Origin: a virus
Taxonomy: Duplodnaviria; Heunggongvirae; Uroviricota; Caudoviricetes
Strand: one strand, 5' to 3'
Length of the DNA: 64,000 nucleotides
IMG/VR virus record: IMGVR_UViG_3300028042_000001
Coordinates: 28,944-92,943 of that record
The position numbers and the translations under genes are program-made. The notes beneath the pieces are model-generated. The model was not told where the DNA came from, did not search any database, and saw nothing but the letters and a program-made list of their open reading frames with translations. Of the stretch, positions 1,518 to 34,200 are shown piece after piece; the stretch's first letter is position 1, and every line of letters starts with the position of its first letter.

Positions 1518-2836
1518 GCGCAACAATAACATTAAAATCTAGATTAGAAGAAGCTACAAAATATATAAAGGATAATTTTGATCCTACAGTAAAGGGTAAT
1601 TATTCTCATTTTTATACAGGAAGAACTCTTCCATGGGATGACGAATATTCTCCTAATATATCTACTTCATCAGAGAAAGAATTATATGATTCAAAATTCC
1701 AAAGAATATATCTCAAACAAATTAAAACAGAAGATACTATTCTTGCAATAAAAAGATTTGATTGGAAAAAGGATACAATATATTCAAGAGCTGATTTCAA
1801 TGTTGATTTTACTGATTATAGATCATGGGTTCATCCAGAAAGTCCATTTTATATTATTAATTCAGAAGGAAATGTATATAAATGTATCAGTAATAACTAT
1901 AACGGTGATTCTACAGTAGAGCCTATAGGTAAATCTGCTGGTTATATGTATCTAGGTGATGGATATGTGTGGAAATTCATGTTTGATTTATCACCAAATA
2001 TAAAAGATAAATTTCTTACAAAAACATGGATTCCTGTTCCTTACAAATCAGAAAACAAATCTACATCACATTTAGATACTGAAGCTAATGCTATTGATGG
2101 TGATATATCATATATTCATGTTGATAATGGAGGTGATAATTATGAAACAGCACCAATTATTGAAATAAGAGGAGATGGTACAGGGGCAGTTGCTACAGCT
2201 ATAATGACAGGAGAAAGTATTGATTATATACAACTATCTAATAATGGTACTGGATATACATATGCAAATATTCATATATTTGGAAATGGTAATAATGGTT
2301 CTGCAACAGCTATGATATCTCCTAAAAATGGTCATGGTTCTGATGCTAATTATGAATTAGGTTCGTTTTATGTGGAAATTACTACAGAATTGATAGGTGA
2401 TGAAGATGGTTTTGCTCCTATTAGTGGAACATATAGAAACATTGGTATAGTAAAAAATACAACAAATAAAACTGACATAATAAAAACTGAAGAAAAATAC
2501 AATACTTTATCTATACTAAATATAAGTGACTGTTCAGGAACGTATGCACCCAATGAAATGATAATAGGTGAATTATCCTATGCTCAAGGTATTGTATATT
2601 ATGATCCGTCAGGAGTAGATAAAAATATAAATGTATATATGATTGAAGGTAATTTTATAGATGGTGAAAATATACACGGTCAATCTACAGGTGAAGTTGG
2701 TATTTATAATGAAGTAGCAAGCACAATTACAGATGTTGATATTCTTAGTGGAGATATTATATATAAAGAGAATATCATTTTTATAACAAGAAGAGAAATA
2801 CAAATAGAAAAATTTGTATTTACAATCGAATTTTAA
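1514..2836 (+). CDS. gp8: Baseplate wedge subunit, T4 gp8-like
   Basis: Motifs YTGRTLPWDDE, IKRFDWKKDTIY, FYIINSEGNVYKCISN, DGYVWKFMF. ATGA overlap with the gp7 stop favours a start at 1514. Confidence 0.88.
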   Translation: MSATITLKSRLEEATKYIKDNFDPTVKGNYSHFYTGRTLPWDDEYSPNISTSSEKELYDSKFQRIYLKQIKTEDTILAIKRFDWKKDTIYSRADFNVDFTDYRSWVHPESPFYIINSEGNVYKCISNNYNGDSTVEPIGKSAGYMYLGDGYVWKFMFDLSPNIKDKFLTKTWIPVPYKSENKSTSHLDTEANAIDGDISYIHVDNGGDNYETAPIIEIRGDGTGAVATAIMTGESIDYIQLSNNGTGYTYANIHIFGNGNNGSATAMISPKNGHGSDANYELGSFYVEITTELIGDEDGFAPISGTYRNIGIVKNTTNKTDIIKTEEKYNTLSILNISDCSGTYAPNEMIIGELSYAQGIVYYDPSGVDKNINVYMIEGNFIDGENIHGQSTGEVGIYNEVASTITDVDILSGDIIYKENIIFITRREIQIEKFVFTIEF

Positions 2837-2846
2837 AGGAAATTAT

Positions 2847-5800
2847 ATGTTAAATTTTAATGTAGCCCCGTATTTTGATGATTTTGATAAAAATAATAAA
2901 TTCTACCGCATTTTGTACCGTCCTTCATATGCGGTACAAGGTAGAGAACTTACACAATCTCAATCGTTATTACAAGAACAGATTAAAAAATTTGGTGATC
3001 ATATATTTAAACATGGAGCGATGGTTTTGCCCGGACAAATAACATATGATCAACAAATATCATATCAAAAAATGGTATCAACATATGGAAATGTACCAAA
3101 TCAAATTGATATAGATCCTAATAACTTTCTTGGATATACTATTATTGGTGAATCGTCTGGTGTTGAAGGTGATGTTATTAATATATCTTCAAAAGATGAA
3201 ACTGATCCTTTAACATTTTATATAAAATTTAAAGATTCTGGAAATGATAATAAATCTATAGGTTTTTGGGATGGAGAAACTATTTTCAGAAAAGATGATC
3301 CTCAGATAAGAGCTATTATTGAAGGTGATCTTGATGAATTAGTTCCTACATATGAATCTACAGGAAAAGCATCAATGACATCCATAGATAAAGGTGTTTA
3401 TTATATCAATGGATTATTTATAGAAAATGATGCTCAATCTATTATTATTAGTAAATATAATCAAATACCTTCTTGTAAAGTTGGTTTGAGAGTGTATGAA
3501 TCAGTAATTACTCCTGAAGAGAATCTTTCTCTTAATGATAATGCTCAAGGTTCTCCTAATTATGCGGCTCCCGGTGCTCATAGATATAAAATCGAACTTA
3601 AATTAGAATATGTAAATGTAGAAGATAATACATCTGATGATTTTGTAATTCTTCAGATAATTGATAGAGGGGTTTTGACTAAAGAAATAAGAATAACTGC
3701 ATATAATGAATTAGAAAAAACATTTGCAAGACGTACATTTGATGAATCTGGGGATTATACTGTAAATCCTTTTGCAATAAGATTAAAAGAACATTTACGT
3801 AAAGAAGATTCTGATAAATATAAAGAAGGTGCTTTTTGGTTGGATGGAAAACCTACAAATGAAGTTGGTGTTTTTACTCTTCCTTATGGTGATGAATCTA
3901 AACTTGTCGCAGAAATGGGAGATGGTAAAGCTTATGTACAAGGTCATGAAATTAGAAAGATTTCAAAATCAAATGTTGAGATAGATAAAGGACGAGATTT
4001 TGAAGTTTCTAATAATTCTGTTACTAATTTTTCTCTTGGAAATTATATTAAAGTTGATAATATCCATAATATTCCTAGAATTGATGAGTTTGGAGAAATC
4101 CGATTATATAGAACAGTTTCTACTGCTGGAAATAATAATTCTGATCAGGTAGGAACAGCTAAAGTTAGAGCTATAAAACGATTTGGAAATATATCATACG
4201 TTTATATATTTGATATTAATATGATCGGTGTTTTTAATTTTGAAGATGATGTTAAATGGATTTATGATACTAATGGTAGTGGAACTAATAATTTCACATG
4301 TTCTCCTATTGTTGAAACTGGAAGTAAAATATATCTATATAAAACTGATAGAAATACTTTATTATTTCCTCTTCCTAACGGAACAATTAAAACACTATCT
4401 GTTAATGGTGAGGGTATTGATACAAATTATGCATCTTCAAGAGCATATTTTAATACTGGTATTGTAAGTAATACTGCTACTCTAGTTGCTAAAGATAATG
4501 AAGTGTTTCAACAAAACACAGAATCTTATTATATATCATATTCTTCAACCGGATTAACTGTTGCAAATCCTACATTTAATTTCACAGGATCTCCAATAGG
4601 AAAAGTTCTTGAAATTGGTAATTTAACATCTCCTGTTAATATAATTTCTCCGGTGACAAAAACTATTAGTACTCAAAAAACAAAATATATCCAAAGAGAT
4701 GTTTCTGTTGTTATATCAGTACCTAATAAAATACAAAATAAAAGAGATTATTTAGGAAAAGCGGATGTAACAACTATAAAAAATATTTTTATGTCTTCTG
4801 GACTTTCAGTATCTCCTACTATAAATGATGTTGATGTTAGAGATAGATACCAAATGGATACTGGTTGTAGAGATAATTATTATGATGTTGCATCTGTAAT
4901 CCTTAAAGGTGGAGAAAATGCGCCATCGGGACAATTAATGATAATTTTTGATCATTTCACCCATACAGAAGGAGATTATTTTTCTGTAGATTCGTATGTT
5001 GATTTAACATACGAAGAAATACCTGTTTATGATTCTAGCGAAACAGGAGACACCTATGCTCTTGCTGACTGCTTCGACTTCAGACCTAGAATGGCTGATG
5101 ATAGAAGTTCATTTACTGGCACTGGTGGATCTATATGCGAACTTCCTCAAGTTCTTAGTGATGTTCGATCTGATTATGAATATTATCTAAATCGTATAGA
5201 TTATCTGTATCTTGATTATACTGGACAGTTTATGGTTTCTAAAGGAATATCTGCTGTTAATCCTAAACCTCCTGAAAAACCAGAAATGGGAATGGTTCTT
5301 TATGAGATGTATATTCCTGCTTACACATTTAAACCATCTGATGTTAGTCCTGCTTATAAGGATAATAAACGTTATACTATGCGTGATATTGGTGATTTAG
5401 ATAAACGAATAGGTAATCTTGAATTTTATACAGCATTAAGTTTGTTAGAAAGAGAAACTGCATCTATGGAAATTCTTGATGAAAATGGATTAAATAGATT
5501 TAAGAATGGATTTGTTGTTGATCCTTTTGATTCTCACAAAATTGGTGATGCAACACATTCTGATTATAATTGTGCTATTGATCCAGAAAATAAAATAATG
5601 CGACCAAAATTCAACGATGAAAATATAGGATTGTTATTTGATGAAGAACATTCTTCTCATGTGCAACGCACTGGTGGTATTATTACATTACCATATAATG
5701 AAACTTCTATTAATAAACAATCACAAGCATCAAAATATGAGAATATAAATCCTTATGCTTTCCGTAATATATTTGGTAAATTAACATTTAACCCAGATTC

Positions 5801-9885: not shown

Positions 9886-10641
9886 ATGGCTATTACTAAT
9901 ATAAATATATCAGATAATACAAATGCATCTGTAGATTATAAAAATAATAATAATACAACAAATCTATTATTATCAGATACTTCTACTATATATAATAAAT
10001 TTGTTGTTAATGAATCTGAAGATATCATATTTATAATTCATCCTACATTAAGGATATCGGATTATATTAAACGAATACCAGAAGAATTATTAGAAGTTAA
10101 TGATAGTTCAAGAATAAATGTTGATTTTAGAAATACTCAAAAAGAAAATATAGTAATTTCTGATTCTACTATTTCTCATTTACATACTATTCAGACAGTA
10201 AATGATTCTATTAATTTTAGATCTGAAGTTCGTGGTAATGTAATATATGGCCCAGATACATCAGCAAGCAATACAACCATAACAGATTCAGTTTTTGCAT
10301 TTATATCAAAACACTCTTCAAGAAACTTTAAAAATGCCATGTTTAATCTTCTTGGGACAACAGAAGAAATAATTTATACATGTGATGTAAAAAATACAAC
10401 AATTATTAATATTTCTTTATGTAATCGTACTTTAAATAACATTAATATTGATGTTTTATTATATAAAAGTGGAATTCCTATATATATAATGAAAGGTATA
10501 TTAGTAAAACCACATCAATCTTATGTTATAAATAATAATAGCGAAACAAATGTACAATTAGAAGGATCTGATGAAATAAGAATGATTACTGATACTGATA
10601 ATTCATCAGATATTTATATGGCTTTAATGGAACAATCATAG
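9886..10641 (+). CDS. Virion structural protein (tail-associated)
   Basis: C-terminal half (FKNA...IYTC...IINISLCNRT..L..SDEI) is paralogous to the next ORF. Confidence 0.55.
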   Translation: MAITNINISDNTNASVDYKNNNNTTNLLLSDTSTIYNKFVVNESEDIIFIIHPTLRISDYIKRIPEELLEVNDSSRINVDFRNTQKENIVISDSTISHLHTIQTVNDSINFRSEVRGNVIYGPDTSASNTTITDSVFAFISKHSSRNFKNAMFNLLGTTEEIIYTCDVKNTTIINISLCNRTLNNINIDVLLYKSGIPIYIMKGILVKPHQSYVINNNSETNVQLEGSDEIRMITDTDNSSDIYMALMEQS

Positions 10642-10651
10642 GAAAATAAAA

Positions 10652-10996
10652 ATGTCAATAGAATTTAAAAATAAAACAACACAAGGTATAGGAACTGGAT
10701 TTACTGAAGTTTATGCTTGTCCCGGAAGTGTTAATTCATCTGTAATTTTTGGTATGACTATTGCAAATGTAGAATCAACATCAATACCTATTACTGTAGA
10801 AGTTAGGATAGAAGATTTATCAGCAACTACATATACACATATTGTAGCACCAGATACACCGATAGAAGTAGGAGCATCACTTGTTCCTGCTGGTGGTGTT
10901 CAAAAAATAGTTTTAGAGCCGGGTGATAAAATTCAAGTTGCTTGTTCTGATGCAAGCGGAGCTGATGTTTTTATTTCAGCATTAGAACTTTCATAA
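10652..10996 (+). CDS. Small virion structural protein (FKN...VYxxP...IFGMTIAN family)
   Basis: Motif pattern common in tail-fibre-adjacent phage proteins. GGAAA RBS upstream. Confidence 0.6.
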   Translation: MSIEFKNKTTQGIGTGFTEVYACPGSVNSSVIFGMTIANVESTSIPITVEVRIEDLSATTYTHIVAPDTPIEVGASLVPAGGVQKIVLEPGDKIQVACSDASGADVFISALELS

Positions 10997-11008
10997 AAAG
11001 AGGAAAAA

Positions 11009-13126
11009 ATGACATATATAGGAAGAGAAGCACAATTACAAGGTGCGTATGATAAAGTTGATGATATATCAAGTCAATTTAATGGAACATTAGATACATT
11101 TGATATAAAAGTTAATACAGTAAATAAAATGATTGGAAAGACTACTAATCTTATTGTTGGTCTTAATAGAGCATTACAAGAACCTAATGATGATTATCAA
11201 ATATCAAATCATCAAATTATATTTACTGTAGCTCCTGCAAATGGAGTCAAATGTTCTATAACTATCCTCGGTGATGTATTTAAAGCACCAACAACAGGAA
11301 ATACAGATCTTAATAGCCTTACAGATGTTGTAGTAGGCTCTGAGAACGATAATGAAGTTCTTACCTATAGTGGAGGGTCTTGGATAAACTTACCACAAGG
11401 AACAACACATTTAAGCAATAATTCAGATGTTGATACATCATCAGCAGTTAATGGTGATAAATTAGTATTTGATGGAATTGAATGGAGTGGAGAACATGAT
11501 TTATTAAATAATATTAATAATGTTAATGCTCCTTCTCCTTCTGATAATCAAACTTTAACATGGAATGATACTGCTGGTGAATGGCAACCAATGGATGCTC
11601 AATCAACAGTTTCTAATATTGATGATTTGGATGATGTTGATACCGTTACATCTGCTCCATCATTAAATAATGTGCTTACTTGGGATGGGTCTAATTGGGT
11701 TCCTCAAACAACACAATCTGTAGTAAATTCTATGGATGATCTTAATGATGCAGATACTTCAACTGTACCTCCAATAGACGGTCAAGCGTTAGTATGGAAT
11801 GCTTCTGTTTCTAATTGGAATCCCGGTACAGTATCTGGTGGAGGTGGAGCTTCAGCAATAGATGATCTTAGTGATGTTGATACTGTTACATCTGCTCCAA
11901 GTTCAGGACAATCTCTTGTTTGGGATGGATCTAATTGGGTTCCCGGTACAGTATCTGGTGGAGGTGGAGCTTCTACAGGAGATATTCAAATATATATAGC
12001 AAATACGGGAGATGATACAACAGGTGATGGATCTAGTGGTTCTCCTTATAGAACAATAAATAGAGCAATAGATCATGCTAATAATATAATAACTACTAAT
12101 GGTATTATATATATTAAAATGGTAGATGATAATATTAACTATATGGGATCATCAACTGTTACTATAAATCATCCAAATAAAATTATATGTATGTCTGTAA
12201 CAGGAGATACTTATAATTTAGAATCATCAACTCTTGATGTATTATTTAATATTGTTAATAGTAATATCACTTTTGAACAATGTAAGTTTGAAATTGTTGA
12301 TGAATCTGTATTTAATTTGACATCTGGTAATAATTCAATAACTTTAAAGGAATGTAGTGGTAGTTTTAAATATTTTTGCACACAAGCATTAACACAATTT
12401 GGATATAATGATAATAATAGATTATCAATACATGAATCGTCTTTCATGCCTATGAATACAACTACATTTCTTAATTTTGGATACCTAGATTTTCAAAATG
12501 TTACTTTTGATGGTAATAATATGACTCTTAATATTCCATACATATATACTAAAAAATGTAATATACATAACTTTAATGTTATTATAAAAAATCCACCACA
12601 AAATTCAAAATCAGTATTCAAATTTTATTATTCAAATATATTTAACGTAAATATAGATTTAGATGATCCTTATACAGAACATTCCAGTTTCAATGATGGT
12701 TTATGTTATTTTGATGGTTGTAATATAAATGATATTACATTCACCCTACATTATAATACAGCATCAGTTATAAGTTTTAATTCGTGTAATGTTAATGATT
12801 TATATTATGTTAATAATAGTAATCTTACCGGAAATAATGGGGATGGTCAATTAATAGAAGCTAGAGGGGGGTCTAATATATCAATAAATACATTAGACCG
12901 AGATCCAAATAGTGATGATTTTACTGGTACTTATATATTAAAAGCATCAGCTAGATCATTTATATCCGTATCTAATATAAATAATTATGGCGAAGAAGGT
13001 GATTTCACAACCGCACCAACATATAGACATCCCGGAGACAACTTTGTATTTGATGGTTCTAATAGTGGTGGATGTATATATATCAACAATGTATATAATG
13101 AAGATGATGGTGGAGGTGAAGAATAG
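11009..13126 (+). CDS. Tail fibre/spike-like protein with LxDLxDV...LxWDGSNWVP repeats and C-terminal beta-helix
   Basis: N-terminus MTYIGR...DDISSQFNG, ~40-aa fibre repeats with duplicated DNA (CCCGGTACAGTATCTGGTGGAGGTGGAGCTTC twice, 120 bp apart), and beta-helix cap YIANTGDDTTGDGSSGSPYRTINRA. Confidence 0.7.
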   Translation: MTYIGREAQLQGAYDKVDDISSQFNGTLDTFDIKVNTVNKMIGKTTNLIVGLNRALQEPNDDYQISNHQIIFTVAPANGVKCSITILGDVFKAPTTGNTDLNSLTDVVVGSENDNEVLTYSGGSWINLPQGTTHLSNNSDVDTSSAVNGDKLVFDGIEWSGEHDLLNNINNVNAPSPSDNQTLTWNDTAGEWQPMDAQSTVSNIDDLDDVDTVTSAPSLNNVLTWDGSNWVPQTTQSVVNSMDDLNDADTSTVPPIDGQALVWNASVSNWNPGTVSGGGGASAIDDLSDVDTVTSAPSSGQSLVWDGSNWVPGTVSGGGGASTGDIQIYIANTGDDTTGDGSSGSPYRTINRAIDHANNIITTNGIIYIKMVDDNINYMGSSTVTINHPNKIICMSVTGDTYNLESSTLDVLFNIVNSNITFEQCKFEIVDESVFNLTSGNNSITLKECSGSFKYFCTQALTQFGYNDNNRLSIHESSFMPMNTTTFLNFGYLDFQNVTFDGNNMTLNIPYIYTKKCNIHNFNVIIKNPPQNSKSVFKFYYSNIFNVNIDLDDPYTEHSSFNDGLCYFDGCNINDITFTLHYNTASVISFNSCNVNDLYYVNNSNLTGNNGDGQLIEARGGSNISINTLDRDPNSDDFTGTYILKASARSFISVSNINNYGEEGDFTTAPTYRHPGDNFVFDGSNSGGCIYINNVYNEDDGGGEE

Positions 13127-13167: not shown

Positions 13168-13199
13168 AAAAGCATTCTCATTTTGAGAGTGCTTTTTTT
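13168..13199 (+). terminator. Rho-independent terminator-like hairpin
   Basis: AAAAGCATTCTC-ATTTT-GAGAGTGCTTTT followed by a T run. Confidence 0.7.
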
Positions 13200-13215: not shown

Positions 13216-16200
13216 ATGAATAAGTTTAAATACGATCCAAATAACACAGAAGGGGCATACCCTACAGCAATGGTTTTAGAAGGAGCAGAATTAAAGAAAG
13301 GTAACAAAATTCTTGCTACTGATATTGTAAATTTATATGATGTTAATATAAATAATCCTCAAAACCAACAAGCATTAACATATGTTGGTGATGAATGGAT
13401 TAATGGTGAAGTTACTAGTGGTTCTGGTGGATGTAATATATTTAAAGGGTATGATGGAGATATAGAAATTCCTTTTGATGCTGTTAATGTTTCTTGTGGT
13501 CATTATCACACATTAGCGATAAAACAAGATGGAACTCTTTGGGGTACTGGTAGTAATTCTTATGGACAGTTAGGTCTTGATGTTATAGTTACTAGAAATG
13601 TTTTTACTCAAGTTGGTTATGATAATGATTGGATTAATGTTTCTTGTGGTGGATATCACACATTAGCAATAAAAGAAGATGGAACTCTTTGGGCTACTGG
13701 TGATAATAATATTGGTCAATTAGGTTTAGGAGATAATATTAATAAAAATGTTTTTACTCAAGTTGGTACTGATACTGATTGGGATAAAATTTCTTGTGGA
13801 TTTGACCATACATTATTAATAAAACAAGATGGAACTCTTTGGGCTACAGGAAAAAATTATTGGGGCGAATTAGGACTTGGAAATAATGTTGATAGAAATG
13901 TTTTTAATCAAGTAGGTACTGACACTGATTGGATTAATGTTTCTTGTGGTGGATATCACACATTAGCAATAAAAGAAGATGGAACTCTTTGGGGTACAGG
14001 AGAAAACCATAAAGGTCAATTAGGACTTGGAGATAACATTGATAGAAATGTTTTTAATCAAGTTGGTTCTGATACTGATTGGATTACTGTTTCTTGTGGG
14101 GGTAATTATACTATATCATTAAAACAAGATGGAACTCTTTGGAGTACAGGAGAAAACCATAAAGGTCAATTAGGACTTGGAAATAATGTTGATAGAAATG
14201 TTTTTACTCAAATAGGTACTGACACTGATTGGGATAAAATTTCTTGTGGGGGTGTTCATACATCGTCAATAAAACAAGATGGAACTCTTTGGAGTACAGG
14301 AGAAAACCATAAAGGACAATTAGGTCTTGGTAATGATATTAATAGAAATGTTTTTACTCAAATTGGTACTGATACTGATTGGGATAAAATTTCTTGTGGT
14401 TTTATTCACACTATAACAATGAAACAATATGGAACTCTTTGGAGTACTGGATATAACTATTCTGGGCAATTAGGACTTCGAGATGTCAATAATAGAATTA
14501 TATACACACAAATAAAATATGATAATATAGTTAATAATTCTATATTTATAGATGAAAACACAACAACTCCCGGATTAGGTCAATATAATACCCCATTTCC
14601 AACATTAAATAGTTGTTTTGAATGGTTAAGAAATAGTTGTGTTGTAATACCAGAAGATAACACATTATATATACAGATTATATCAGATTTAATAATATAT
14701 GAAAAAGTATCATTAAATCATCCATATGGTTATAATATAAAAATATGTGGTAATAATCATAAAATAAGTACATCTTATGATTTATATATAGAAATTGAAA
14801 AATATACTGCACTTTCTTATAATTTTATTAAAGTTGTGCGTGGTGGTGAATTTACATATGGACTAAAAAATGACGGTACTCTTTGGGCAACAGGTTTTAA
14901 TAATGCAGGGCAGTTAGGTCACTCAAATATCATAATATCAGAAATAAATGTATTTATACAAGTAGGTTCTGACACCGATTGGAAAGATATAGTTTGTAAT
15001 GGAAGTTATGCTATAGCGACAAAAAAAGATAATACTATTTGGGGAACTGGATATAATTTTTCTGGTCAATTAGGACTTGGAGATATAAATAATTTTTATT
15101 CATTTACTCAAATAGGTACTGATACTGATTGGAAAATAATTTCATGTGGTTTGAGTTATGTGATGGCTTTAAAACAAAACGGTACTCTTTGGGTTACTGG
15201 TTCTAATCATTATGGGCAGTTAGGGCTTGGAGATAATGTTGATAGGAATGTTTTTACTCAAGTTGGTTCTGATACTGATTATAAATTCATAGATGCTAAT
15301 TCTAACAGATCATTAATAATAAAACAGAATGGTACTCTTTGGGCTACTGGTCAAAATAATTATGGTCAATTAGGACTAGGAGATGTTAATAATAGAAATG
15401 TTTTTGAACAAGTAGGTATTGATAATGATTATTCTTTTTCTACAGGAGAATATAATGCAACTACAGTAAAAAAAAATAATGGAACTATTTGGGCTACTGG
15501 AAGAAATGATCATGGTCAATTAGGACTTGGAGATAATGTTGATAGAAATGTTCTTACACAAGTTGGTACTAATACTGATTGGGATATTTTAGATGGTTCA
15601 TTTGCTATAAAAGAAGATGGAACTCTTTGGGCTACTGGATATAATTATTATGGTCAATTAGGTCTTGGAGATAATGATGATAGAAATGTATATACCCAAG
15701 TAGGAAATAATTCTAATTGGGTATTTGTTGATAATGCATTTCATACAATAATAGTTAATAATGAAGGGTATATATTTGGTACTGGATGGAATTATAGAGG
15801 ACAATTAGGGCTTGGTGATAACATAAATACCAATATATTTACTCAATCACTTCATAATATATATACATTAGATATATCTGGGACAGATCCTTATTTTTTT
15901 ATTGATAATAATAATAAAATAAATATTTCTGATATTATATTTAAAATGAATATATATTTTGATAATGATAATGCAGATGAAGGGTTGGTTCATGATTATT
16001 ATATTGATATTAATAATATATATGCCTCAAATAATTCTATTATAATAATGAATAATATTAAATTTACATCAAGTAATATATTATTAATAAAGGGTATATC
16101 ATCAATTAATGAATACGCAGTTATACATATTAAAGATTCACCTCTAAAAATTTCTTCAAGTTTAGGTATATTTACAGGTACAATACCTTCAAATATATCA

Positions 16201-16362
16201 ATCGATGATAATTCTACTTTAGAATTATCAGACTTAAATTATAATATAACTAATTGGAAAGTTAATAATAATTCTTTTATTATAATTAATACTGAAAATA
16301 ATCCCACAATAGATATAGAAAATGAAAATTCAACAGTAATATTAAACGATGCCAAAATTTAA
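13216..16362 (+). CDS. Fibre-like protein A with two RCC1/BLIP-II beta-propellers (7+7 repeats)
   Basis: Repeats of SCGxxHTxxIKxDGTLWxTGxNxxGQLGLG. Likely start MNKFKYDPNNTEG at 13216, matching the paralog N-termini. Confidence 0.85.
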   Translation: MNKFKYDPNNTEGAYPTAMVLEGAELKKGNKILATDIVNLYDVNINNPQNQQALTYVGDEWINGEVTSGSGGCNIFKGYDGDIEIPFDAVNVSCGHYHTLAIKQDGTLWGTGSNSYGQLGLDVIVTRNVFTQVGYDNDWINVSCGGYHTLAIKEDGTLWATGDNNIGQLGLGDNINKNVFTQVGTDTDWDKISCGFDHTLLIKQDGTLWATGKNYWGELGLGNNVDRNVFNQVGTDTDWINVSCGGYHTLAIKEDGTLWGTGENHKGQLGLGDNIDRNVFNQVGSDTDWITVSCGGNYTISLKQDGTLWSTGENHKGQLGLGNNVDRNVFTQIGTDTDWDKISCGGVHTSSIKQDGTLWSTGENHKGQLGLGNDINRNVFTQIGTDTDWDKISCGFIHTITMKQYGTLWSTGYNYSGQLGLRDVNNRIIYTQIKYDNIVNNSIFIDENTTTPGLGQYNTPFPTLNSCFEWLRNSCVVIPEDNTLYIQIISDLIIYEKVSLNHPYGYNIKICGNNHKISTSYDLYIEIEKYTALSYNFIKVVRGGEFTYGLKNDGTLWATGFNNAGQLGHSNIIISEINVFIQVGSDTDWKDIVCNGSYAIATKKDNTIWGTGYNFSGQLGLGDINNFYSFTQIGTDTDWKIISCGLSYVMALKQNGTLWVTGSNHYGQLGLGDNVDRNVFTQVGSDTDYKFIDANSNRSLIIKQNGTLWATGQNNYGQLGLGDVNNRNVFEQVGIDNDYSFSTGEYNATTVKKNNGTIWATGRNDHGQLGLGDNVDRNVLTQVGTNTDWDILDGSFAIKEDGTLWATGYNYYGQLGLGDNDDRNVYTQVGNNSNWVFVDNAFHTIIVNNEGYIFGTGWNYRGQLGLGDNINTNIFTQSLHNIYTLDISGTDPYFFIDNNNKINISDIIFKMNIYFDNDNADEGLVHDYYIDINNIYASNNSIIIMNNIKFTSSNILLIKGISSINEYAVIHIKDSPLKISSSLGIFTGTIPSNISIDDNSTLELSDLNYNITNWKVNNNSFIIINTENNPTIDIENENSTVILNDAKI
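13489..14510 (+). repeat. Seven tandem 150-bp RCC1-coding repeats (gene A, block 1)
   Basis: 150-bp period of AAACAAGATGGAACTCTTTGG...GGTCAATTAGG. Boundaries approximate. Confidence 0.9.
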
Positions 16363-19300
16363 TTATAATCCAAATAACACAGAAGGAATATATCCAACAT
16401 CAATAGATTTTATTGATACCGAAGTGAAAAAAGGAAATAAAATTATCGCTACAGATATAGTTGATTTATATGATACATATCCAGAATCACAAACACCAAA
16501 TCAAGGAGATGCATTAGTTTATGATTCTATCGATGGTATATGGAAACCCGGAGAAGGTGCAGGGGGAAGTTCATGTAATGTATTTGAAGGGTATGATAGT
16601 GTTGTTAATATTCCTTTTGATGCTGTTCATGTTTCTTGTGGTCATTATCACACATTAGCGATAAAACAAGATGGAACTCTATGGGCTACTGGTCAAAATT
16701 ATGGAGGTCAATTAGGACTTGGAGATAATGTTGATAGAAATGTTTTTAATCAAGTTGGTACTGATACTGATTGGATTAATGTTTCTTGTGGTCATTATCA
16801 CACATCGTCAATAAAACAAGATGGAACTCTTTGGAGTACTGGTCTAAATAATGAAGGTCAATTAGGTCTTGGAGATAACATTAATAGAAATGTTTTTACT
16901 CAAATAGGTACTGATACTGATTGGGATAAAATTTCTTGTGGTGGATATCACACATTATTAATAAAACAAGATGGAACTCTTTGGAGTACTGGTGATAATT
17001 CTTTTGGGCAATTAGGACTTGGAAATAATGTTGATAGAAATGTTTTTACTCAAATAGGTACTGATACTGATTGGGATAAAATTTCTTGTGGATCTCTTCA
17101 TACATCGTCAATAAAACAATATGGAACTCTTTGGAGTACTGGATATAACTATTCTGGGCAATTAGGTCTTGGAGATAACATTGATAGAAATGTTTTTACT
17201 CAAGTTGGTACTGATACTGATTGGGATAAAATTTCTTGTGGTTTTATTCATACATCATCAATAAAACAAGATGGAACTCTTTGGAGTACTGGTCTAAATA
17301 ATGAAGGTCAATTAGGACTTGGAGATAACATTGATAGAAATGTTTTTAATCAAGTTGGTTCTGATACTGATTGGGATAAAATTTCTTGTGGTATTTATCA
17401 TACATCAGTAATAAAAGAAGATGGAACTCTTTGGAGTACTGGTGATAATTCTTTTGGGCAATTAGGTCTTGGAGATAACATTGATAGAAATGTTTTTACT
17501 CAAATAGGTACTGATACTGATTGGGATAAAATTTCTTGTGGTATTTATCATACATCAGTAATAAAGCAAAACGGAACTCTTTGGGCTACTGGAAGAAATG
17601 ATCATGGTCAATTAGGTATTGGTGATAATGTTAATAAAAATTTTTTTCATCAAGTTGGTTCTGATACTGATTGGGATAAAATTTCTGGTGGTATTTATCA
17701 TACATTAACAACAAAACAAAACGGAAATCTTTGGGCTACTGGTGACAACCAATGGGGGCAATTAGGTCTTAGGGATAATATTAATGTAAATATTTTTACT
17801 CAAATAAAGTATAATATTAATTATACAAATTCTATATTTATAAACAAAAATACATCAACTCCCGGAAATGGAACTTATGATAATCCATTTTTAACTCTAA
17901 AAGAATGTTTTGAATATTTAAATACATGCAATACAATTCCCGATGAAATCACACTTACTATCCAATTATTATCTGATGTTATTAATACAGAACCAACATC
18001 TTTAAATCATCCTCAAGGATATAATATTGTTATTAATGGTAATAATCATAATATTATAAATATAAATAATGGAAATTTAGAATATCCTTATTCATATCCT
18101 GTATATATTAATGATTGGAACTATGTATCTGGTGGTTATTTACACACCACAGCTATAAAAAACGATAATACTCTTTGGGTTACTGGAAGAAATGATCATG
18201 GTCAATTGGGTTTAGGACATAATTACGAAATAATTTATTTTGAACAAGTTGGTATTAATAATGATTGGATTAATGTTTCTTGTGGAAAATATTGTACGGT
18301 AGCTATTAAATTAAATAGAACTCTTTGGAGTACAGGAGAAAACCATAAAGGTCAATTAGGTCTTGGAGATGATGTTGATAGAAATGTTTTTACTCAAATT
18401 GGTACTGATACTGATTGGGATAAAATTTCTTGTGGAGAAACTCACACATTAGCAATAAAACAAGATGGAACTCTTTGGAGTACTGGTTGGAATTATGGAG
18501 GTCAATTAGGTCTTGGAGATAACATTGATAGAAATGTTTTTACTCAAATAGGTACTGATACTGATTGGGATAAAATTTCTTGTGGATCTCTTCACACATT
18601 AGTAATAAAACAAGATGGAACTCTTTGGAGTACTGGAAGAAATATTCGTGGGCAATTAGGACTTGGAGATAACATTGATAGAAATGTTTTTAATCAAGTT
18701 GGTTCTGATACTGATTGGGATAAAATTTCTTGTGGAGAAACTCACACATTAGCAATAAAACAAGATGGAACTCTTTGGAGTACTGGTCTAAATAATGAAG
18801 GTCAATTAGGACTTGGAGATAATGTTGATAGAAATGTTTTTAATCAAGTTGGTACTGATACTGATTGGAATAATATTTATTGTGGTTCTCAACACACATC
18901 ATTAATAAAAAATAATGGAACTATATGGACTACTGGAAGAAATTTTGTAGGGCAATTAGGTCTTGGTGATAATATTAATAGGAATGTTTTTAATCAAGTT
19001 GGTAATGATACTGATTGGAAATTATTATATGGTGGGTATTTACATACATTAGCTATTAAATCAAATGGAATTCTTTATGCAACTGGATGGAATCGTTTCG
19101 GTCAATTAGGTCTTGGAGATAATGATGATAGGAATGTTTTTGAATATTTATTTACATATGAATATAAATTCAAATCAAAATTGGTATTAAATAATAATCA
19201 TTCAATAAAAAAAATTATTAATGTTAATTTTAATACTTATATTATTAATTATAATTATACAATACCAATATTAACACATATTAATATTGATGATTTATCA

Positions 19301-19567
19301 ATTACATCATTTGATAACATAAATGAAATTAATAACAATTATACATCATATTTAGATATTTCATCAAAATCAATAGTAAATATTAATAATTTTAATATAA
19401 AACATATATCATCAACTGACTCTATTTGTAATATTGACAATTGTAATTATTTATTAAATTATAATTTAATAAATAATTCTACATTAATTATTAAAAAACA
19501 GCCAATAGTATATCCAGTAATTCATAATTATGAATCAATATATATTATAAATGGGATATCACAATAA
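16349..19567 (+). CDS. Fibre-like protein B with two RCC1/BLIP-II beta-propellers (8+7 repeats)
   Basis: Same 50-aa repeats. N-terminus MPKFNYNPNNTEG is paralogous to A. Confidence 0.85.
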   Translation: MPKFNYNPNNTEGIYPTSIDFIDTEVKKGNKIIATDIVDLYDTYPESQTPNQGDALVYDSIDGIWKPGEGAGGSSCNVFEGYDSVVNIPFDAVHVSCGHYHTLAIKQDGTLWATGQNYGGQLGLGDNVDRNVFNQVGTDTDWINVSCGHYHTSSIKQDGTLWSTGLNNEGQLGLGDNINRNVFTQIGTDTDWDKISCGGYHTLLIKQDGTLWSTGDNSFGQLGLGNNVDRNVFTQIGTDTDWDKISCGSLHTSSIKQYGTLWSTGYNYSGQLGLGDNIDRNVFTQVGTDTDWDKISCGFIHTSSIKQDGTLWSTGLNNEGQLGLGDNIDRNVFNQVGSDTDWDKISCGIYHTSVIKEDGTLWSTGDNSFGQLGLGDNIDRNVFTQIGTDTDWDKISCGIYHTSVIKQNGTLWATGRNDHGQLGIGDNVNKNFFHQVGSDTDWDKISGGIYHTLTTKQNGNLWATGDNQWGQLGLRDNINVNIFTQIKYNINYTNSIFINKNTSTPGNGTYDNPFLTLKECFEYLNTCNTIPDEITLTIQLLSDVINTEPTSLNHPQGYNIVINGNNHNIININNGNLEYPYSYPVYINDWNYVSGGYLHTTAIKNDNTLWVTGRNDHGQLGLGHNYEIIYFEQVGINNDWINVSCGKYCTVAIKLNRTLWSTGENHKGQLGLGDDVDRNVFTQIGTDTDWDKISCGETHTLAIKQDGTLWSTGWNYGGQLGLGDNIDRNVFTQIGTDTDWDKISCGSLHTLVIKQDGTLWSTGRNIRGQLGLGDNIDRNVFNQVGSDTDWDKISCGETHTLAIKQDGTLWSTGLNNEGQLGLGDNVDRNVFNQVGTDTDWNNIYCGSQHTSLIKNNGTIWTTGRNFVGQLGLGDNINRNVFNQVGNDTDWKLLYGGYLHTLAIKSNGILYATGWNRFGQLGLGDNDDRNVFEYLFTYEYKFKSKLVLNNNHSIKKIINVNFNTYIINYNYTIPILTHINIDDLSITSFDNINEINNNYTSYLDISSKSIVNINNFNIKHISSTDSICNIDNCNYLLNYNLINNSTLIIKKQPIVYPVIHNYESIYIINGISQ
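16631..17810 (+). repeat. Eight tandem 150-bp RCC1-coding repeats (gene B, block 1)
   Basis: The TG(x) loop recurs at 16691, 16841, 16991, 17141, 17291, 17441 and onward. Boundaries approximate. Confidence 0.9.
18125..19145 (+). repeat. Seven RCC1-coding repeats (gene B, block 2)
   Basis: Central units are near-identical to block 1 units. Boundaries approximate. Confidence 0.85.
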
Positions 19568-21534
19568 TGACTAAGTTAATATTTAATAATAATAACACAG
19601 AAGGGCACTACACAACATCTTTTGATTTTATAGATACAGAAGTAAGGAAAGATGATAAAATAGTTGCTACAGATCTAATAGACCTATACGATGTTGAATT
19701 AACTAATGTTCAGAATGGTGAAATATTAGTATATAATTCAACAAAGCAAAAATGGGTAAATGGAGAAGCAGGAGCTGGTTGTAATACAACAACACATAAT
19801 AAAAAATATAGTATTGGTCAATTTGGTGATTTTATATCATTAAATGAATGTTTTAATTGGTTAAGAAATAATTGTAAAATAATAAAAGAATATAATACAA
19901 TAACTATATATTTAAAAGAGAATATTGATATAAAAGAACATACATCATTAAATCATCCATATGGGCATAGAATAATTATTGATGGTGATTATAATGAGAT
20001 ACGTACTCATTATGATGATATTATAGATAATAATATATCATTATCTCATTCTCATAATATTACTATTAAAAATACTTTTATAAAATCATCATATGTTGGT
20101 GATGATTTAGAAGAAAAATATGCATTTATAATGAATACGGATGGATATTTTACCCCATATATAAGAAATTGTTTTTTAACTAATCATGATAATATTATTT
20201 ATTGTTTTGGTGGGTTAGAATATGATGGATCTGGAAATTTAATAAATAATAATAAAAAAGTATATAAATGTGAGTCTGTATTATATTCTAGATGGGAAGA
20301 ATACGATACTAATATACCATATAATGTTATTGTTTCTGAATATTGTATAAAATACAATAATAAAATATTATTATTTAATAATAATAATAATGGTTTTGAT
20401 ACAATATGGGTATATAATTTTGATACAAATATATGGTCTGAAAGTGCAGTTTCGTCAGGAGATATTCCATCTACTGATGATATAACTGCTGGATACACTT
20501 TATCATTATATAATGATAAAGTGTATCTTATAGGTGGATATCCTCATAATAATTCAATATATATATATGATATAATATCAAATTCTTGGTCTAAATTAGC
20601 AGATATACTTGGTATTATGGGATATATTTATCATTCATCATATATATATGATGATAAGATTTATATATATGGAGGACAAGGAACTAATGATCAAGAAAAT
20701 TTTAATGGATTATTGTCTTTTGATTTATTATCTAATGATATAAACATAATAATACCAAACACTTCTTATCATGATAATTCTTCTACTCCTTATAAAAGAG
20801 GTTTATACCGTCATCATTCATATATTAATGATGACGGTATAATGTTTATATATTCTGGAATAGGAAAATCAATTTCAAATCCTTATATTCTTGATGCTCA
20901 AAAATTTATATATACGTATAATATAAGAGATAATATATGGAATATTCATGATGATGGTATTTATGGTTATGCCAATTATGGATTTACTGTATTAAATGAT
21001 ATATCATATATATTAGGTGGATATGTTGCTTATAATAATATTTCTGGGAAAAGATACCCAAGTAATAAATTTGTAAAAATACATAATAATGAAAAAGTAT
21101 TTGAAATTGATAATAAACCATCATCAGAATTTATTACAAGTAATAAACACACATATACAAGTTCATTAGTTATTACTAACAATTCATTAATAAATACTAG
21201 AGATGTTGTAAGTATAGCTAATGGCCCTTATTATAGAGATCCTGTTTTAGTAACAAGAGCAATAGAAATTTCGTATCATAATACATACATAATAGAAAAA
21301 CTAAATATTAACTTGTTTGAAATAAATAATAATTCATTGTTTCATAATGATGGTTATTATGAAACATCAGGACATATAAATTCAATGTTAATATATAATA
21401 ATAGTTCATTGTATATGGAACCTCCAAAAAATGTATGGTATACAATAAAAAATGGAAGCATGGTTTTGAGTAGTAATATACAAAATTTTACAAATTCTAC
21501 ATTTGTAAATTCAAAATTAATAGAGAAAAAATAA
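19567..21534 (+). CDS. Fibre-like protein C with Kelch beta-propeller
   Basis: Kelch motifs (YCFGG, YLIGG, YIYGG, YILGG, Y..W). N-terminus and internal SLNHPYG module are shared with A and B. Confidence 0.75.
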   Translation: MTKLIFNNNNTEGHYTTSFDFIDTEVRKDDKIVATDLIDLYDVELTNVQNGEILVYNSTKQKWVNGEAGAGCNTTTHNKKYSIGQFGDFISLNECFNWLRNNCKIIKEYNTITIYLKENIDIKEHTSLNHPYGHRIIIDGDYNEIRTHYDDIIDNNISLSHSHNITIKNTFIKSSYVGDDLEEKYAFIMNTDGYFTPYIRNCFLTNHDNIIYCFGGLEYDGSGNLINNNKKVYKCESVLYSRWEEYDTNIPYNVIVSEYCIKYNNKILLFNNNNNGFDTIWVYNFDTNIWSESAVSSGDIPSTDDITAGYTLSLYNDKVYLIGGYPHNNSIYIYDIISNSWSKLADILGIMGYIYHSSYIYDDKIYIYGGQGTNDQENFNGLLSFDLLSNDINIIIPNTSYHDNSSTPYKRGLYRHHSYINDDGIMFIYSGIGKSISNPYILDAQKFIYTYNIRDNIWNIHDDGIYGYANYGFTVLNDISYILGGYVAYNNISGKRYPSNKFVKIHNNEKVFEIDNKPSSEFITSNKHTYTSSLVITNNSLINTRDVVSIANGPYYRDPVLVTRAIEISYHNTYIIEKLNINLFEINNNSLFHNDGYYETSGHINSMLIYNNSSLYMEPPKNVWYTIKNGSMVLSSNIQNFTNSTFVNSKLIEKK

Positions 21535-26630: not shown

Positions 26631-27868
26631 AATCATATAAAAAATATTTAACAGAATCAGATTACCTGCGTTTCTTAAAAAAGAATAAACATTTATCTGA
26701 TGATCAAAAAAATAAAATTAATATTTTTTTTAAATCAGATAAAAAAGCTGTGCAACAATTTGAAAAGAAATGGGGATGGCAATCTAAATATCCTCAAAAA
26801 ATGATGTGGGATGATTTTGAAGACATAATGATGTTGTATAAATCTGGAAGACGAAAAAATTTAAAATCTATTAATATTCGGGGAAAAAAAGGTGAAGATT
26901 ATTGGCCTGTAAAATTAAAAACAAAAGGGTTTATAGCTAATATTCCTCTCAATTATAATACTGCGAATTTTATGAATTCTTGTCGATATGGAGAATTGAA
27001 TGTTAATTATTGTATCGGATGGGGAGATGGTAAATCATATTGGTTAGAGCATGTTATTACTGATAATAATGTTCCTGTTTATATCATTGATGGTGATAGA
27101 AAATGGGTAGTAATGATAGACGAAGATAATCATTCATATCAAGTTTGGGATAAATTAAATCAAAAAGATATAGCGATAGGGAATAAAGAACCTATTCCCG
27201 GATTCTCTATCAAAAAAGAACTTCTTAATTCCCGGATGAAAAAGGTTTATGACGAGATTAGAGAAGATTTTTATGCTAAAGATGGCCCTCCATATACAGA
27301 AGCTAATTTAGAAGAAGCTATGGATGAATATGGTGCTTTAAATGATGATATTAAGAATGATATTATTAATATATCAGAGTCCGAAAGAGAGTATAATGAT
27401 AATGGATATGATGTTAAAAATGCAACTATTGAATATTATACAGAAGAAATTGAAGATTTGGATGAAGGAGATCCATTAATTGATATTTATAAAATATTTA
27501 TAAATATTATAGATGATACTCCACCAGATAAAGAAGAATTATTAGCAACAGAAAAAGAATATCAAAAAGAATATCCTGATGCTAATTTAACATTACAAGG
27601 AGAATTATATGATTATTATTCTCAAACAAAAAAATTCGTAGATATAAAAGATGACTATCCTTTATTAATACGGGTTTTAAAATCACAGAATAACGGTAAT
27701 ATTATATATAAAAAAGTTAATATGAATATAATTAATTTTATCAATGAAAATGCGTTTGAAAATTCATATGATGCATTAAATTGGAGAACACTAGAAGATG
27801 ATATGAGTGATATGTTGGATAATAATAATATTTTTGATCCTGATTATAATGATGAATACTACGATTAA
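26627..27868 (+). CDS. Putative internal head protein, paralog P2 (acidic tail)
   Basis: Leader MKSYKKYLTE; shared N-domain; D/E/Y-rich C-terminus. Confidence 0.7.
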   Translation: MKSYKKYLTESDYLRFLKKNKHLSDDQKNKINIFFKSDKKAVQQFEKKWGWQSKYPQKMMWDDFEDIMMLYKSGRRKNLKSINIRGKKGEDYWPVKLKTKGFIANIPLNYNTANFMNSCRYGELNVNYCIGWGDGKSYWLEHVITDNNVPVYIIDGDRKWVVMIDEDNHSYQVWDKLNQKDIAIGNKEPIPGFSIKKELLNSRMKKVYDEIREDFYAKDGPPYTEANLEEAMDEYGALNDDIKNDIINISESEREYNDNGYDVKNATIEYYTEEIEDLDEGDPLIDIYKIFINIIDDTPPDKEELLATEKEYQKEYPDANLTLQGELYDYYSQTKKFVDIKDDYPLLIRVLKSQNNGNIIYKKVNMNIINFINENAFENSYDALNWRTLEDDMSDMLDNNNIFDPDYNDEYYD

Positions 27869-32179: not shown

Positions 32180-33553
32180 ATGAAATCATTTATAAAATAC
32201 ATAACAGAAGCAAATTATTCTAGATTTTTAAAGAAAAATAAAAATTTAAACACTGACCAAAGAAATGAAATTAATTATTTCTTTTCTAAAATTAATACTC
32301 AAGCAGGATCAAAAATAGATTGGCAAAATAAAAAAATCAGGAATATGACTTATGATGATTTTGAAAATATCATATTAAATTCTAAATCTGGAAGACGAAA
32401 AAATTTAAAATCTATTAATATTCCCGGAAAAAAAGGTGAAGATTATTGGCCTGTAAAATTAAAAACAAAAGGGTTTATAGCTAATATTCCTCTTAATCAT
32501 AAAACTGCAAATTATATGAATTCTTGTAAATATGGAACAATAGATGTTAATTATTGTATCGGATGGGGAGATGATGCTGAATATTGGGATAGTCACGTTA
32601 TTGATGATCAAGAATTACCTGTTTATATAATTGATGGTGATAGAAAATGGGTTGTTATTATTGATGATGGTAATCATTCATATCAAGTTTGGGATAAATT
32701 AAATCAAAGAGATATATCAAAAAGTAATAAAGAACCTATTCCCGGATTCTCTATCAAAAAAGAACTTCTTAATTCCCGGATGAAAAAGGTTTATGACGAG
32801 ATTAGAGAAGATTTTTATACAGAAGATGATAGAAATGATGAAAACGAACATGAATATGATAGATCTGATGCTATAAATGACTATAATGAATTTATTTCTA
32901 ATATTGAAAGTGCTAAAAAAGACTTAGAAGAAGGAAGAGATGAATATTATAAAATATTATCAGATACTTATAATGATACTCTTGAATACTATGAAAATCT
33001 TAGAGATGAATTTGAAGAGAAAATGACTTCTGCTGAAGAAAAAATGGATTCTGTTGAAGAAAAAAAAGATGAGTTAGATGGTATTATATCTGATGATTAT
33101 CCAGATAAAACTGAAGATGGTGTATATATGTATAAGTATAATGGATCGTATTGGACAATGGAACAATTAAATGTTTTATTTGATGATATATATGATTTAT
33201 TCCAAAAATATGAATCTCAAAAAGAAGATTTTGAAGAACAGTGGAATATATATGATGATGCTTATAATGAAATTGATGAAATTGATGATGGTGATGGATA
33301 TGAAATGTCTTCTAAATATGATGATTACGAATGGCAAGGTGATATACCAGAAGAATTTAGTTATGAACAAAATATTAATATTCCACATATTTCTTACTAT
33401 AATGAATATATAGATTTTCTTGAATATTTTGGTTTTACTATTGATGAGGATTATATTCAAGAAAAAATATGGTCATATATTTATGAAGATTCTTTATCAT
33501 CTGCTGAAGAAGCATTAAGTTCTGCTGGTTTATACACCCCGGAGGCAGATTAG
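32180..33553 (+). CDS. Putative internal head protein, paralog P4 (acidic tail)
   Basis: Leader MKSFIKYITE; shared N-domain; acidic C-half. Confidence 0.7.
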   Translation: MKSFIKYITEANYSRFLKKNKNLNTDQRNEINYFFSKINTQAGSKIDWQNKKIRNMTYDDFENIILNSKSGRRKNLKSINIPGKKGEDYWPVKLKTKGFIANIPLNHKTANYMNSCKYGTIDVNYCIGWGDDAEYWDSHVIDDQELPVYIIDGDRKWVVIIDDGNHSYQVWDKLNQRDISKSNKEPIPGFSIKKELLNSRMKKVYDEIREDFYTEDDRNDENEHEYDRSDAINDYNEFISNIESAKKDLEEGRDEYYKILSDTYNDTLEYYENLRDEFEEKMTSAEEKMDSVEEKKDELDGIISDDYPDKTEDGVYMYKYNGSYWTMEQLNVLFDDIYDLFQKYESQKEDFEEQWNIYDDAYNEIDEIDDGDGYEMSSKYDDYEWQGDIPEEFSYEQNINIPHISYYNEYIDFLEYFGFTIDEDYIQEKIWSYIYEDSLSSAEEALSSAGLYTPEAD

Positions 33554-34200
33554 ATGAAACATTTTAAAGATTATATATTAGAGGCAGATTATAGTAGATT
33601 CTTAAAAAAGAATAAACATTTATCTGATGATCAAAAAAATAAAATTAATATTTTTTTTAAATCAGATAAAAAAGCTGTGCAACAATTTGAAAAGAAATGG
33701 GGATGGCAATCTAAACATCCAAAAGAAATGAAGTGGCACGACTTCGAAAATATAATGATGAAATATAAATCTGGAAGACGAAAAAATTTAAAATCTATTA
33801 ATATTCCCGGAAAAAAAGGTGAAGATTATTGGCCTGTAAAATTAAAAACAAAAGGGTTTATAGCTAATATTCCTCTTAATCATAAAACTGCAAATTATAT
33901 GAATTCTTGTAAATATGGAACAATAGATGTTAATTATTGTATCGGATGGGGAGATGATGCTGAATATTGGGATAGTCACGTTATTGATGATCAAGAATTA
34001 CCTGTTTATATAATTGATGGTGATAGAAAATGGGTTGTTATTATTGATGATGGTAATCATTCATATCAAGTTTGGGATAAATTAAATCAAAGAGATATAT
34101 CAAAAAGTAATAAAGAACCTATTCCCGGATTCTCTATCAAAAAAGAACTTCTTAATTCCCGGATGAAAAAGGTTTATGACGAGATTAGAGAAGATTTTTA
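32383..34200 (+). repeat. 435-bp exact direct repeat (32383-32817 = 33766-34200) within P4 and P5
   Basis: Compared line by line by eye; identical at offset 1383. Confidence 0.85.

Follow-up and report, generated by a model that had tools for sequence, protein, structure and literature searches.

Two neighbouring genes of an uncultured phage, designated here A and B, carry between them 29 RCC1 units whose DNA has evolved in concert, tracts of ~25-85 bp having been copied between blades, between the propellers of one gene and between the two genes. Both genes lie in the window, the whole 64,000-nucleotide stretch of DNA that was analysed, which comprises bases 28944-92943 of the 156.9-kb IMG/VR virus record IMGVR_UViG_3300028042_000001 (~87% complete). 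A and B are predicted from synteny and fold to be paralogous tail-fibre-module proteins that each display two RCC1-like beta-propellers, and the history of their arrays is probably one of concerted evolution by general homologous recombination, combined with diversifying selection on a putative ligand-binding face of these propellers. The pattern is a known evolutionary mode that works through ordinary recombination, and not a new mechanism or a diversifying machine. The two genes and their blades occupy the following positions of the window.

13216..16362, + strand: gene A, a fibre-type protein (open reading frame; Pfam RCC1, RCC1_2 and WD40_RLD far over cut-off; alternative TTG start at 13183)
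13483..14532, + strand: blades A1-A7 of gene A (7 x 150 bp), with A2-A6 within the homogenised core set
14827..15867, + strand: blades A8-A14 of gene A, the second propeller, more diverged and with indels in A8, A13 and A14
16349..19567, + strand: gene B, paralogous to A and alike in layout, in a 14-nt overlap with the end of A
16625..17824, + strand: units B1-B8 of gene B, of which B1-B7 form a predicted closed 7-bladed propeller and the eighth unit is left out by the model
18119..19168, + strand: blades B9-B15 of gene B, the second propeller, with B10-B13 within the core set

In gene A an N-terminal domain of ~88 amino acids (aa) is followed by RCC1 propeller 1 and, beyond a linker domain, by RCC1 propeller 2 and the C-terminal domain. 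The proteins of the two genes score 272 and 358 bits against Pfam RCC1 (cut-off 21.7) and 431 and 514 bits against Pfam WD40_RLD (cut-off 150), and 26 of the 28 RCC1-type repeat matches in the genome lie over the curated cut-off. When the blade units are anchored on the GQLG motif, 14 are counted in gene A (7 + linker + 7) and 15 in gene B (8 + linker + 7), nearly all of them 150 bp apart and in register, which bears out the ~29 blades proposed in an earlier interpretation made from the letters and open reading frames of this DNA (the sequence-only reading). Tandem Repeats Finder (TRF) reports periods of 150, 300 and 450 bp in the array.

The units had been described in that reading as almost invariant apart from two loops. 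The concentration of variation on a few positions stands, but the near-invariance does not, the mean pairwise DNA identity of the units being 74%. Outside seven variable codons, pairs of core blades (16-17 units) are 87% identical in DNA and pairs among the 26 in-register blades 79%, and inside those codons the identity falls to 45-49%; about 12 blades (A7-A14, B8, B9, B14 and B15) are much more diverged than the rest. Entropy is highest, at 2.7-3.3 bits, in columns 7 and 8 of the unit (SCG-xx-HT) and in columns 24, 26 and 27 (TG-x-N-xx-GQ), with columns 11, 12, 1 and 2 moderately variable. Part of the constancy of the blades at the DNA level is due to codon bias in a genome whose content of guanine plus cytosine (GC) is ~28% (25-35%). 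Codon identity at identical residues is nonetheless 0.80-0.88 among the window's blades, compared with 0.63-0.67 in a background drawn from unrelated parts of A and B or from the window phage and a relative.

The recurrence of particular loop alleles in different blades and genes is real in each instance that the sequence-only reading had listed: GENHKGQ occurs three times in A and once in B (A4, A5, A6 and B10), GLNNEGQ three times in B (B2, B5 and B13), GDNSFGQ twice in B (B3 and B6) and GRNDHGQ in both genes (A12, B7 and B9). The KQYG variant with its GYNYSGQ loop is located in A7 and B4, within a 53-bp match that is exact and ends in a mismatch at either side, and T, A, G and C all occur in the variable codons, so that substitutions are indeed not restricted to adenine. 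Shared loop alleles are identical in DNA together with the neighbouring synonymous codons, as in the four ENHK alleles, which all read ACA GGA ... AAC, and they must therefore be copies by descent and not products of convergence. The loop allele common to A12, B7 and B9 spans 24 nt in blades that, taken whole, are only 69-74% identical.

That short stretches of DNA have passed from blade to blade, within each gene and from one gene to the other, as had been proposed, is borne out by tests of site compatibility, permutation tracts, exact repeats, a mosaic parse and a blade tree. For the 16 core blades the pairwise homoplasy index (PHI) test gives p=0.0005 with a 30-nt window and p=0.003 with one of 50 nt; 75% of the informative site pairs are incompatible, and compatibility is greater for neighbouring sites. 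A GENECONV-style permutation test, corrected over all blade pairs, identifies ten blade pairs with identical tracts at a global p<0.05, including A12-B1/B13 (nt 84-120), A7-B5 (nt 1-26), A9-B2 (nt 121-150) and A4-B5/B12 (nt 80-150). There are 109 maximal exact repeats of at least 30 bp, many of which connect A with B; exact repeats of 50-83 bp are present both within and between genes, and the inter-gene exact tracts measure 52-71 bp. Several of these identities are given here.

14422..14474 = 17114-17166, + strand: 53-bp tract common to A7 and B4, carrying the KQYG variant and the GYNYSGQ loop (nt 42-90, global p=0.026; the rest of the two blades is 76% identical)
14012..14082 = 17304-17374, + strand: 71-bp exact inter-gene tract, nt 80-150 of A4 and nt 80-150 of B5 (global p=0.04)
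18405..18487 = 18705-18787, 17309-17391 = 18653-18735 and 17459-17541 = 18503-18585, + strand: the longest exact repeats, three pairs of 83 bp

The core blades are mosaics of segments present in other blades. A greedy parse leaves nine of them with zero private nucleotides, each tiled by 3-7 exact segments of other blades; blade A4, for example, is composed of A2 (1-61), A5 (62-99) and B5 or B12 (100-150), and blade B13 of B11 (1-69), B5 (70-104) and B1 (105-150). The evidence for recombination derives jointly from scaffold sites and loops. Comparison of the two genes points in the same direction, in that the blades of A and B are 80-89% identical in DNA, whereas the non-repeat domains are 67-70% identical in nucleotides (52-59% in amino acids) and the C-termini cannot be aligned, and the homogenisation is therefore specific to the blades.

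Related phages provide a further view of the process. In a tree built from 80 blades of four phages on 41 scaffold columns, the blades cluster by genome (21 label changes, compared with 38.6 when labels are shuffled, and 0/1000 shuffles as low), and within the window phage the blades of A and B are intermixed (9 label changes, compared with 9.1 shuffled). Each phage has its own majority residues at scaffold columns 15 (Q, S, T, E), 21, 4 and 10, and the terminal blades retain a positional affinity, A7 with B8 and B15 with the last blade of the contig L013, as is expected if edge repeats escape homogenisation. As read from these alignments, the genome clustering, the lineage-specific scaffold residues and the affinity of the edge blades appear to be the signature that concerted evolution classically leaves. 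In all four phages the highest variability falls on the same five columns.

The relatives available for such comparisons are distant. No close relative was returned by megablast against phages, a 29-mer scaffold pattern found no match in viral contigs and none in metagenome contigs, and an exact protein look-up yielded neither A nor B, with the adjacent Kelch gene present as a singleton cluster. The best identity in the protein search was 51%, with no relative above ~50% in the collections searched, and a search for related loci with gene B produced only a 28% relative.

The codons that differ most between blades also differ in a distinct manner. The ratio of the proportions of non-synonymous and synonymous differences between pairs (pN/pS) is 1.5-1.8 in the seven variable codons, compared with 0.37 in the core-blade scaffold. 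Counted as extra states in the 16 core blades, the variable codons have 38 amino-acid and 4 synonymous states, and the other 43 codons 28 amino-acid and 22 synonymous states (Fisher p=0.0004). The pattern at the variable codons fits diversifying selection, and what is firmly shown is only the complete relaxation of constraint.

The location of these residues was examined on a structural model. AlphaFold2, supplied with a 12-sequence alignment of phage propellers, predicts B1-B7, one of the four propellers, to be a closed seven-bladed propeller of 28 strands, with a predicted local distance difference test (pLDDT) score >90 over model residues 7-358; a single-sequence AlphaFold2 run was uninformative (pLDDT 40). 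Foldseek aligns the model with the Arabidopsis RCC1-like propeller UVR8 at a target-normalised template modelling (TM) score of up to 0.91 and a root-mean-square deviation (rmsd) of 1.6 A, with 31-32% sequence identity, and UVR8 is likewise the best sequence match among solved structures (phmmer E=8e-47). The strands of a unit occupy columns 0-5, 9-14, 19-23 and 38-44, column 0 being the final residue of the unit before, so that columns 7-8 form the A-B loop and columns 24-27 start the long C-D loop, just after strand C. Because the strands form an antiparallel meander, the A-B and C-D loops lie on one face of the propeller. Columns 11-12 belong to strand B, and their variation is limited to small or hydrophobic residues. 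In the HMMER alignment to UVR8, columns 7-8 fall on the W-R of the GWRHT motifs and column 24 on W198/W250/W302; in UVR8 the W/R of GWRHT and W198/W250/W302 are at the dimer interface, and the W39/W92/... ring is buried (PMC7455749, Fig. 1 legend). The variable residues, which the sequence-only reading had taken for binding-surface loops, are thus placed in loops A-B and C-D, on one face of a confidently predicted seven-bladed fold, and the variable codons (columns 7, 8, 24, 26 and 27) would lie on an interaction surface if exposure is judged from topology and homology.

The eighth unit of B remains outside the modelled ring. The first array holds 8 units in B and 7 in A, and the C-terminal half of B8 (17675-17824) resembles that of A7 (14383-14532); gene B may have acquired one more unit or, alternatively, its first array may be a ring of eight blades.

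The account favoured here has the general homologous recombination or gene conversion of the phage copying tracts from blade to blade, for which the scaffold DNA would supply the homology. Five to seven codons per blade would be kept different by diversifying selection or, at the least, by a full relaxation of constraint, and these codons would occupy the A-B and C-D loops, on the face that usually binds partners in RCC1-like propellers. Conversion tracts carrying a loop would transfer that loop to another blade or to the other gene, and so give rise to the recurring loop alleles; the variable face would in turn bind a putative host-surface ligand. The genome contains a RecA/UvsX-like gene and an SbcC/gp46-like one, both consistent with a general recombination system. 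Another paralog family in the window contains exact identities of 117 bp (33599-33715 = 26672-26788) and 435 bp (33766-34200 = 32383-32817), and gene conversion between paralogs is a genome-wide habit of this phage. With such exchanges in an unrelated family, and a UvsX/RecA-like recombinase, general recombination is sufficient to explain the arrays. In its simplest form this account has general recombination working on whatever DNA is repeated in the genome, and in the RCC1 arrays selection for a folding propeller and for a binding face would shape the result. The synonymous divergence of the core blades (pS 0.23) and the shortness of the exact tracts indicate that exchanges have accumulated in the course of evolution, not all of them recently. 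The idea that recombination has acted among the blades largely holds as an evolutionary history, but there is no sign of a dedicated or high-frequency 'library' mechanism, general recombination being enough.

Specialised machinery for diversification was sought in the 157-kb record (87% complete), in which the reverse transcriptase (RT) profile RVT_1 has no match at E<=1 and the Resolvase and Phage_integrase profiles have none at E<=0.1. The system is RT-free in this contig, as had been suggested. A diversity-generating retroelement (DGR) was rejected on the lack of an RT and of a template repeat (the 29 units are mutually variable, with no invariant template among them) and on variation that is not adenine-restricted; an invertase or shufflon was rejected on the lack of any resolvase or integrase match. 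Both models fail because the record has no RT, resolvase or tyrosine recombinase match and because the variable codons use all four bases.

One alternative to exchange is that the arrays grew by past tandem duplication, including that of two- and three-blade segments, followed by point mutation focused on the loops, so that clustered differences would merely look like mosaics. The TRF periods of 300 and 450 bp besides 150, and the resemblance of B2-B3-B4 to B5-B6-B7 and of A2 to A4, are what such a history would leave, and exact matches naturally stop at variable codons. A bipartite graph of loop-1 alleles (columns 7-8) by loop-2 alleles (columns 24-27) is moreover a forest without a cycle, and the loop pairings are therefore explicable by stepwise duplication and replacement of one loop; for lack of a four-gamete-type cycle among these alleles, loop pairings alone were dropped as proof of shuffling. 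Duplication and mutation without exchange do not, however, lead one to expect nine blades that lack a single private nucleotide, nor site pairs that are 75% incompatible with compatibility clustered among neighbours (PHI p=0.0005), nor a 24-nt allele common to A12, B7 and B9 despite a blade identity of 69-74%, nor blades of A and B that are far more alike than the domains that flank them, and this explanation is judged unlikely. The absence of a cycle in the loop-allele graph nevertheless counts against concerted evolution under selection, as do several other points. PHI over all 26 blades is not significant, probably through saturation of the diverged blades. The blade tree is poorly resolved (41 columns, no starred branch) and serves as supporting, not decisive, evidence. 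The excess of non-synonymous change over neutral expectation is moderate (p=0.06 to 0.0015 for a synonymous share of 20-30%, and p=0.01 at 3:1), and pairwise pN comes close to saturation. The virion location and ligand binding of A and B are predicted from synteny and fold, and the sequence is a metagenome assembly.

This last point bears on the possibility that the mosaics are an artefact, made up of in-register chimeras between blades or between co-occurring strains that were joined by a short-read assembler. The record is a metagenome-derived virus contig, and in-frame repeats of 150 bp would mask in-register chimeras, as the frames would stay open. The longest exact repeat is only 83 bp, however, a length exceeded by the largest k-mers of assemblers and by the reads in usual use, so the array should be resolvable; independently assembled relatives from other samples have the same layout of two genes with two propellers each, and the mosaic tracts are common to three or more blades. 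An origin by misassembly is accordingly most improbable. Quite different is the proposal that the arrays are an active, high-frequency, RT-free generator of diversity, kept for that purpose, so that a single population would hold many variants of blade order and loops. The raw materials are at hand in 29 homologous donors, exact homologies of 50-83 bp and the phage's own recombinase, the variation is focused on the loops of a predicted binding face, and mosaic blades are free of private mutations. Set against this, no dedicated enzyme or site was found in the record, the core-blade pS of 0.23 and the short exact tracts indicate exchanges that are not very recent, and searches of viral and metagenome contigs and of proteins retrieved no blade-array population or strain-level variants. 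The same pattern is in addition common in bacterial RCC1 arrays, and closure of the propeller limits changes in blade number. A generator of this kind is very unlikely, and it is equally hard to credit the more specific picture in which the two arrays are a self-contained, RT-free cassette library, with loop-bearing tracts copied among the 29 blades by the phage's own recombination so frequently that each burst or population would hold many binding-face variants and host range would adapt rapidly, like antigen or receptor repertoires that are made by gene conversion. Concerted evolution by general recombination remains the probable explanation.

The genomic setting of A and B is that of a T4-type virion. 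The window encodes a baseplate wedge, a 1973-aa DUF4815 protein, fibre-like proteins, sheath, portal and major head protein, along with an SbcC/gp46-like nuclease. The major head protein is only ~50% identical to its counterparts in T4-like cyanophages, and the phage is therefore regarded, on these protein comparisons, as a T4-like marine myovirus that is probably a distant, uncultured member of the T4 superfamily. A and B are located between the baseplate and fibre genes and the neck and sheath genes; the N-terminus of gene A weakly matches a tail-fibre PHROG (E=8.5e-4), and the gene B protein matches phrog_7220, phrog_16766 and phrog_4219, which are PHROG 'regulator of chromosome condensation' families. 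Baseplate wedge genes are found further upstream of the first of the two neighbouring features listed here.

11009..13126, + strand: upstream fibre-like gene (PHROG tail fiber families phrog_18673 and phrog_9729), which gives the context of a tail-fibre module
19567..21534, + strand: gene C, a third paralogue in which Kelch blades replace RCC1 on the same N-terminal and linker scaffold, outside the RCC1 exchange

An N-terminal domain (~75-90 aa) and the linker domain are common to A, B and C. Related loci vary on this theme. The locus L009 contains an orthologue of A that matches it in layout, together with the beginning of B, and L012 (10001-19294) is syntenic, with a first gene, A', that combines RCC1 and Kelch (1356 aa), a second, B', with RCC1, and a third, C', with RCC1 instead of Kelch, an arrangement which indicates that whole propeller modules have been swapped between related phages. 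The neighbouring fibre gene is 47-49% identical to the relatives' counterpart. In the 5.7-kb contig L013 the A-like gene (2655-5668) breaks off in mid-blade and resumes in another frame (open reading frames 2655-4712 and 4673-5668), owing either to a frameshift or to misassembly within the repeats.

The linker domain (14533-14826, 17825-18118 and 19801-20100) contains the conserved motif N-T-P-F-x-[TS]-L-x-x-C-F-x-W-L-R-N, with S-L-N-H-P-x-G further along, and this motif is similar to the one that opens the C-terminal half of the L009 orthologue (10001-12274) of the upstream fibre-like gene. Searches of Pfam and PHROGs with the linker gave no match; one possibility is that it caps a beta-helix and that the second propeller is an insertion in this helix. 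Pfam DUF1924 scores 51.7 bits on the whole gene B protein, with no single stretch passing (18530-18649, residues 728-767), and looks like a spurious, repeat-driven match.

The closest parallel in design comes from a fungus. In Podospora anserina the WD40 repeats of het-d, het-e and the other HNWD genes evolve in concert, both inside a locus and from one locus to another, and each repeat has four codons under selection on the interaction surface (Paoletti, Saupe and Clave, 2007, PMC1805685; PMC2873952). As in the phage, the DNA of the propeller repeats is conserved, units are exchanged both inside a locus and between paralogues without the need for a dedicated mutator, and few codons per repeat are variable on an interaction surface, with the proviso that in the phage selection fits the data and the surface is inferred. 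The differences are that the phage repeats are RCC1 units of 50 aa and the fungal ones WD40 units of 42 aa, that the former belong to a fibre-module protein and the latter to an allorecognition protein of the NOD-like receptor (NLR) type, and that unit identity is ~87% in the phage core blades compared with up to 100% in the fungus, where strain-level variation in repeat number and repeat-induced point mutation (RIP) are also known. Among phages of the same T4-like superfamily, the gp38 adhesins of T-even phages have hypervariable segments between conserved glycine-rich motifs, and recombination has been proposed to shuffle them (Trojet et al., 2011, PMC3157838). The likeness lies in conserved structural DNA motifs that separate interchangeable specificity segments, the role of A and B in host recognition being putative; gp38, however, is a small non-propeller protein with four segments that are exchanged between phages, whereas A and B provide 29 intragenomic donors in two genes and have an unrelated fold. 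The DGR of the Bordetella phage BPP-1 (Mtd type) likewise varies a few surface codons of a receptor-binding protein, a function that is putative for A and B, but these lack an RT and a template/variable repeat pair, use all four bases and keep an invariant Asn codon at column 25 between the variable codons.

Other RCC1 proteins are instructive in a different way. Arabidopsis UVR8 and RCC1-like domains (RPGR, HERC and RCC1) have the same seven-bladed fold, and the variable columns correspond to interface positions of UVR8 (PMC7455749), but identity is 31-32%, there is no functional link and the UVR8 blades are not homogenised. Other phages too are known to encode RCC1 repeat proteins, in some cases many of them, as shown by the PHROG 'regulator of chromosome condensation' families and by the jumbo coliphage phAPEC6, which encodes eleven RCC1-like proteins with a suggested role in DNA organisation (PMC7247149). 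No report of blade exchange in phage RCC1 proteins was found in the open-access literature; an apparent lead to 'RCC1' in prasinoviruses (PMC12906663) proved false, as RCC there denotes culture-collection strain numbers. In a set of 123 multi-blade RCC1 proteins obtained by protein search, a set biased to consensus-like sequences, gene B ranks 8 with an internal scaffold identity of 0.76 (median 0.60, maximum 0.82), and other members are also of low identity at the same variable columns, which suggests that the design of conserved scaffold and variable loop may be widespread in prokaryotic RCC1 proteins. One metagenomic protein of 1527 aa (P0076) combines 26 RCC1 blades that closely resemble one another (scaffold identity 0.80) with a Peptidase_S74 (endosialidase chaperone) domain at its C-terminus, and appears from this architecture to be an independent, unrelated RCC1 array in a tail-fibre-type protein.

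The design of conserved scaffold, hypervariable surface and concerted evolution, known from WD40 proteins of the fungal immune type, is thereby extended to RCC1 arrays of phages. If the propellers are receptor-binding modules, a lytic marine phage would renew a multivalent binding face by means of repeat homology and general recombination, without a retroelement. The five positions per blade would then be the likely determinants of specificity, and as such may be useful in reading host range from the genomes of uncultured phages.

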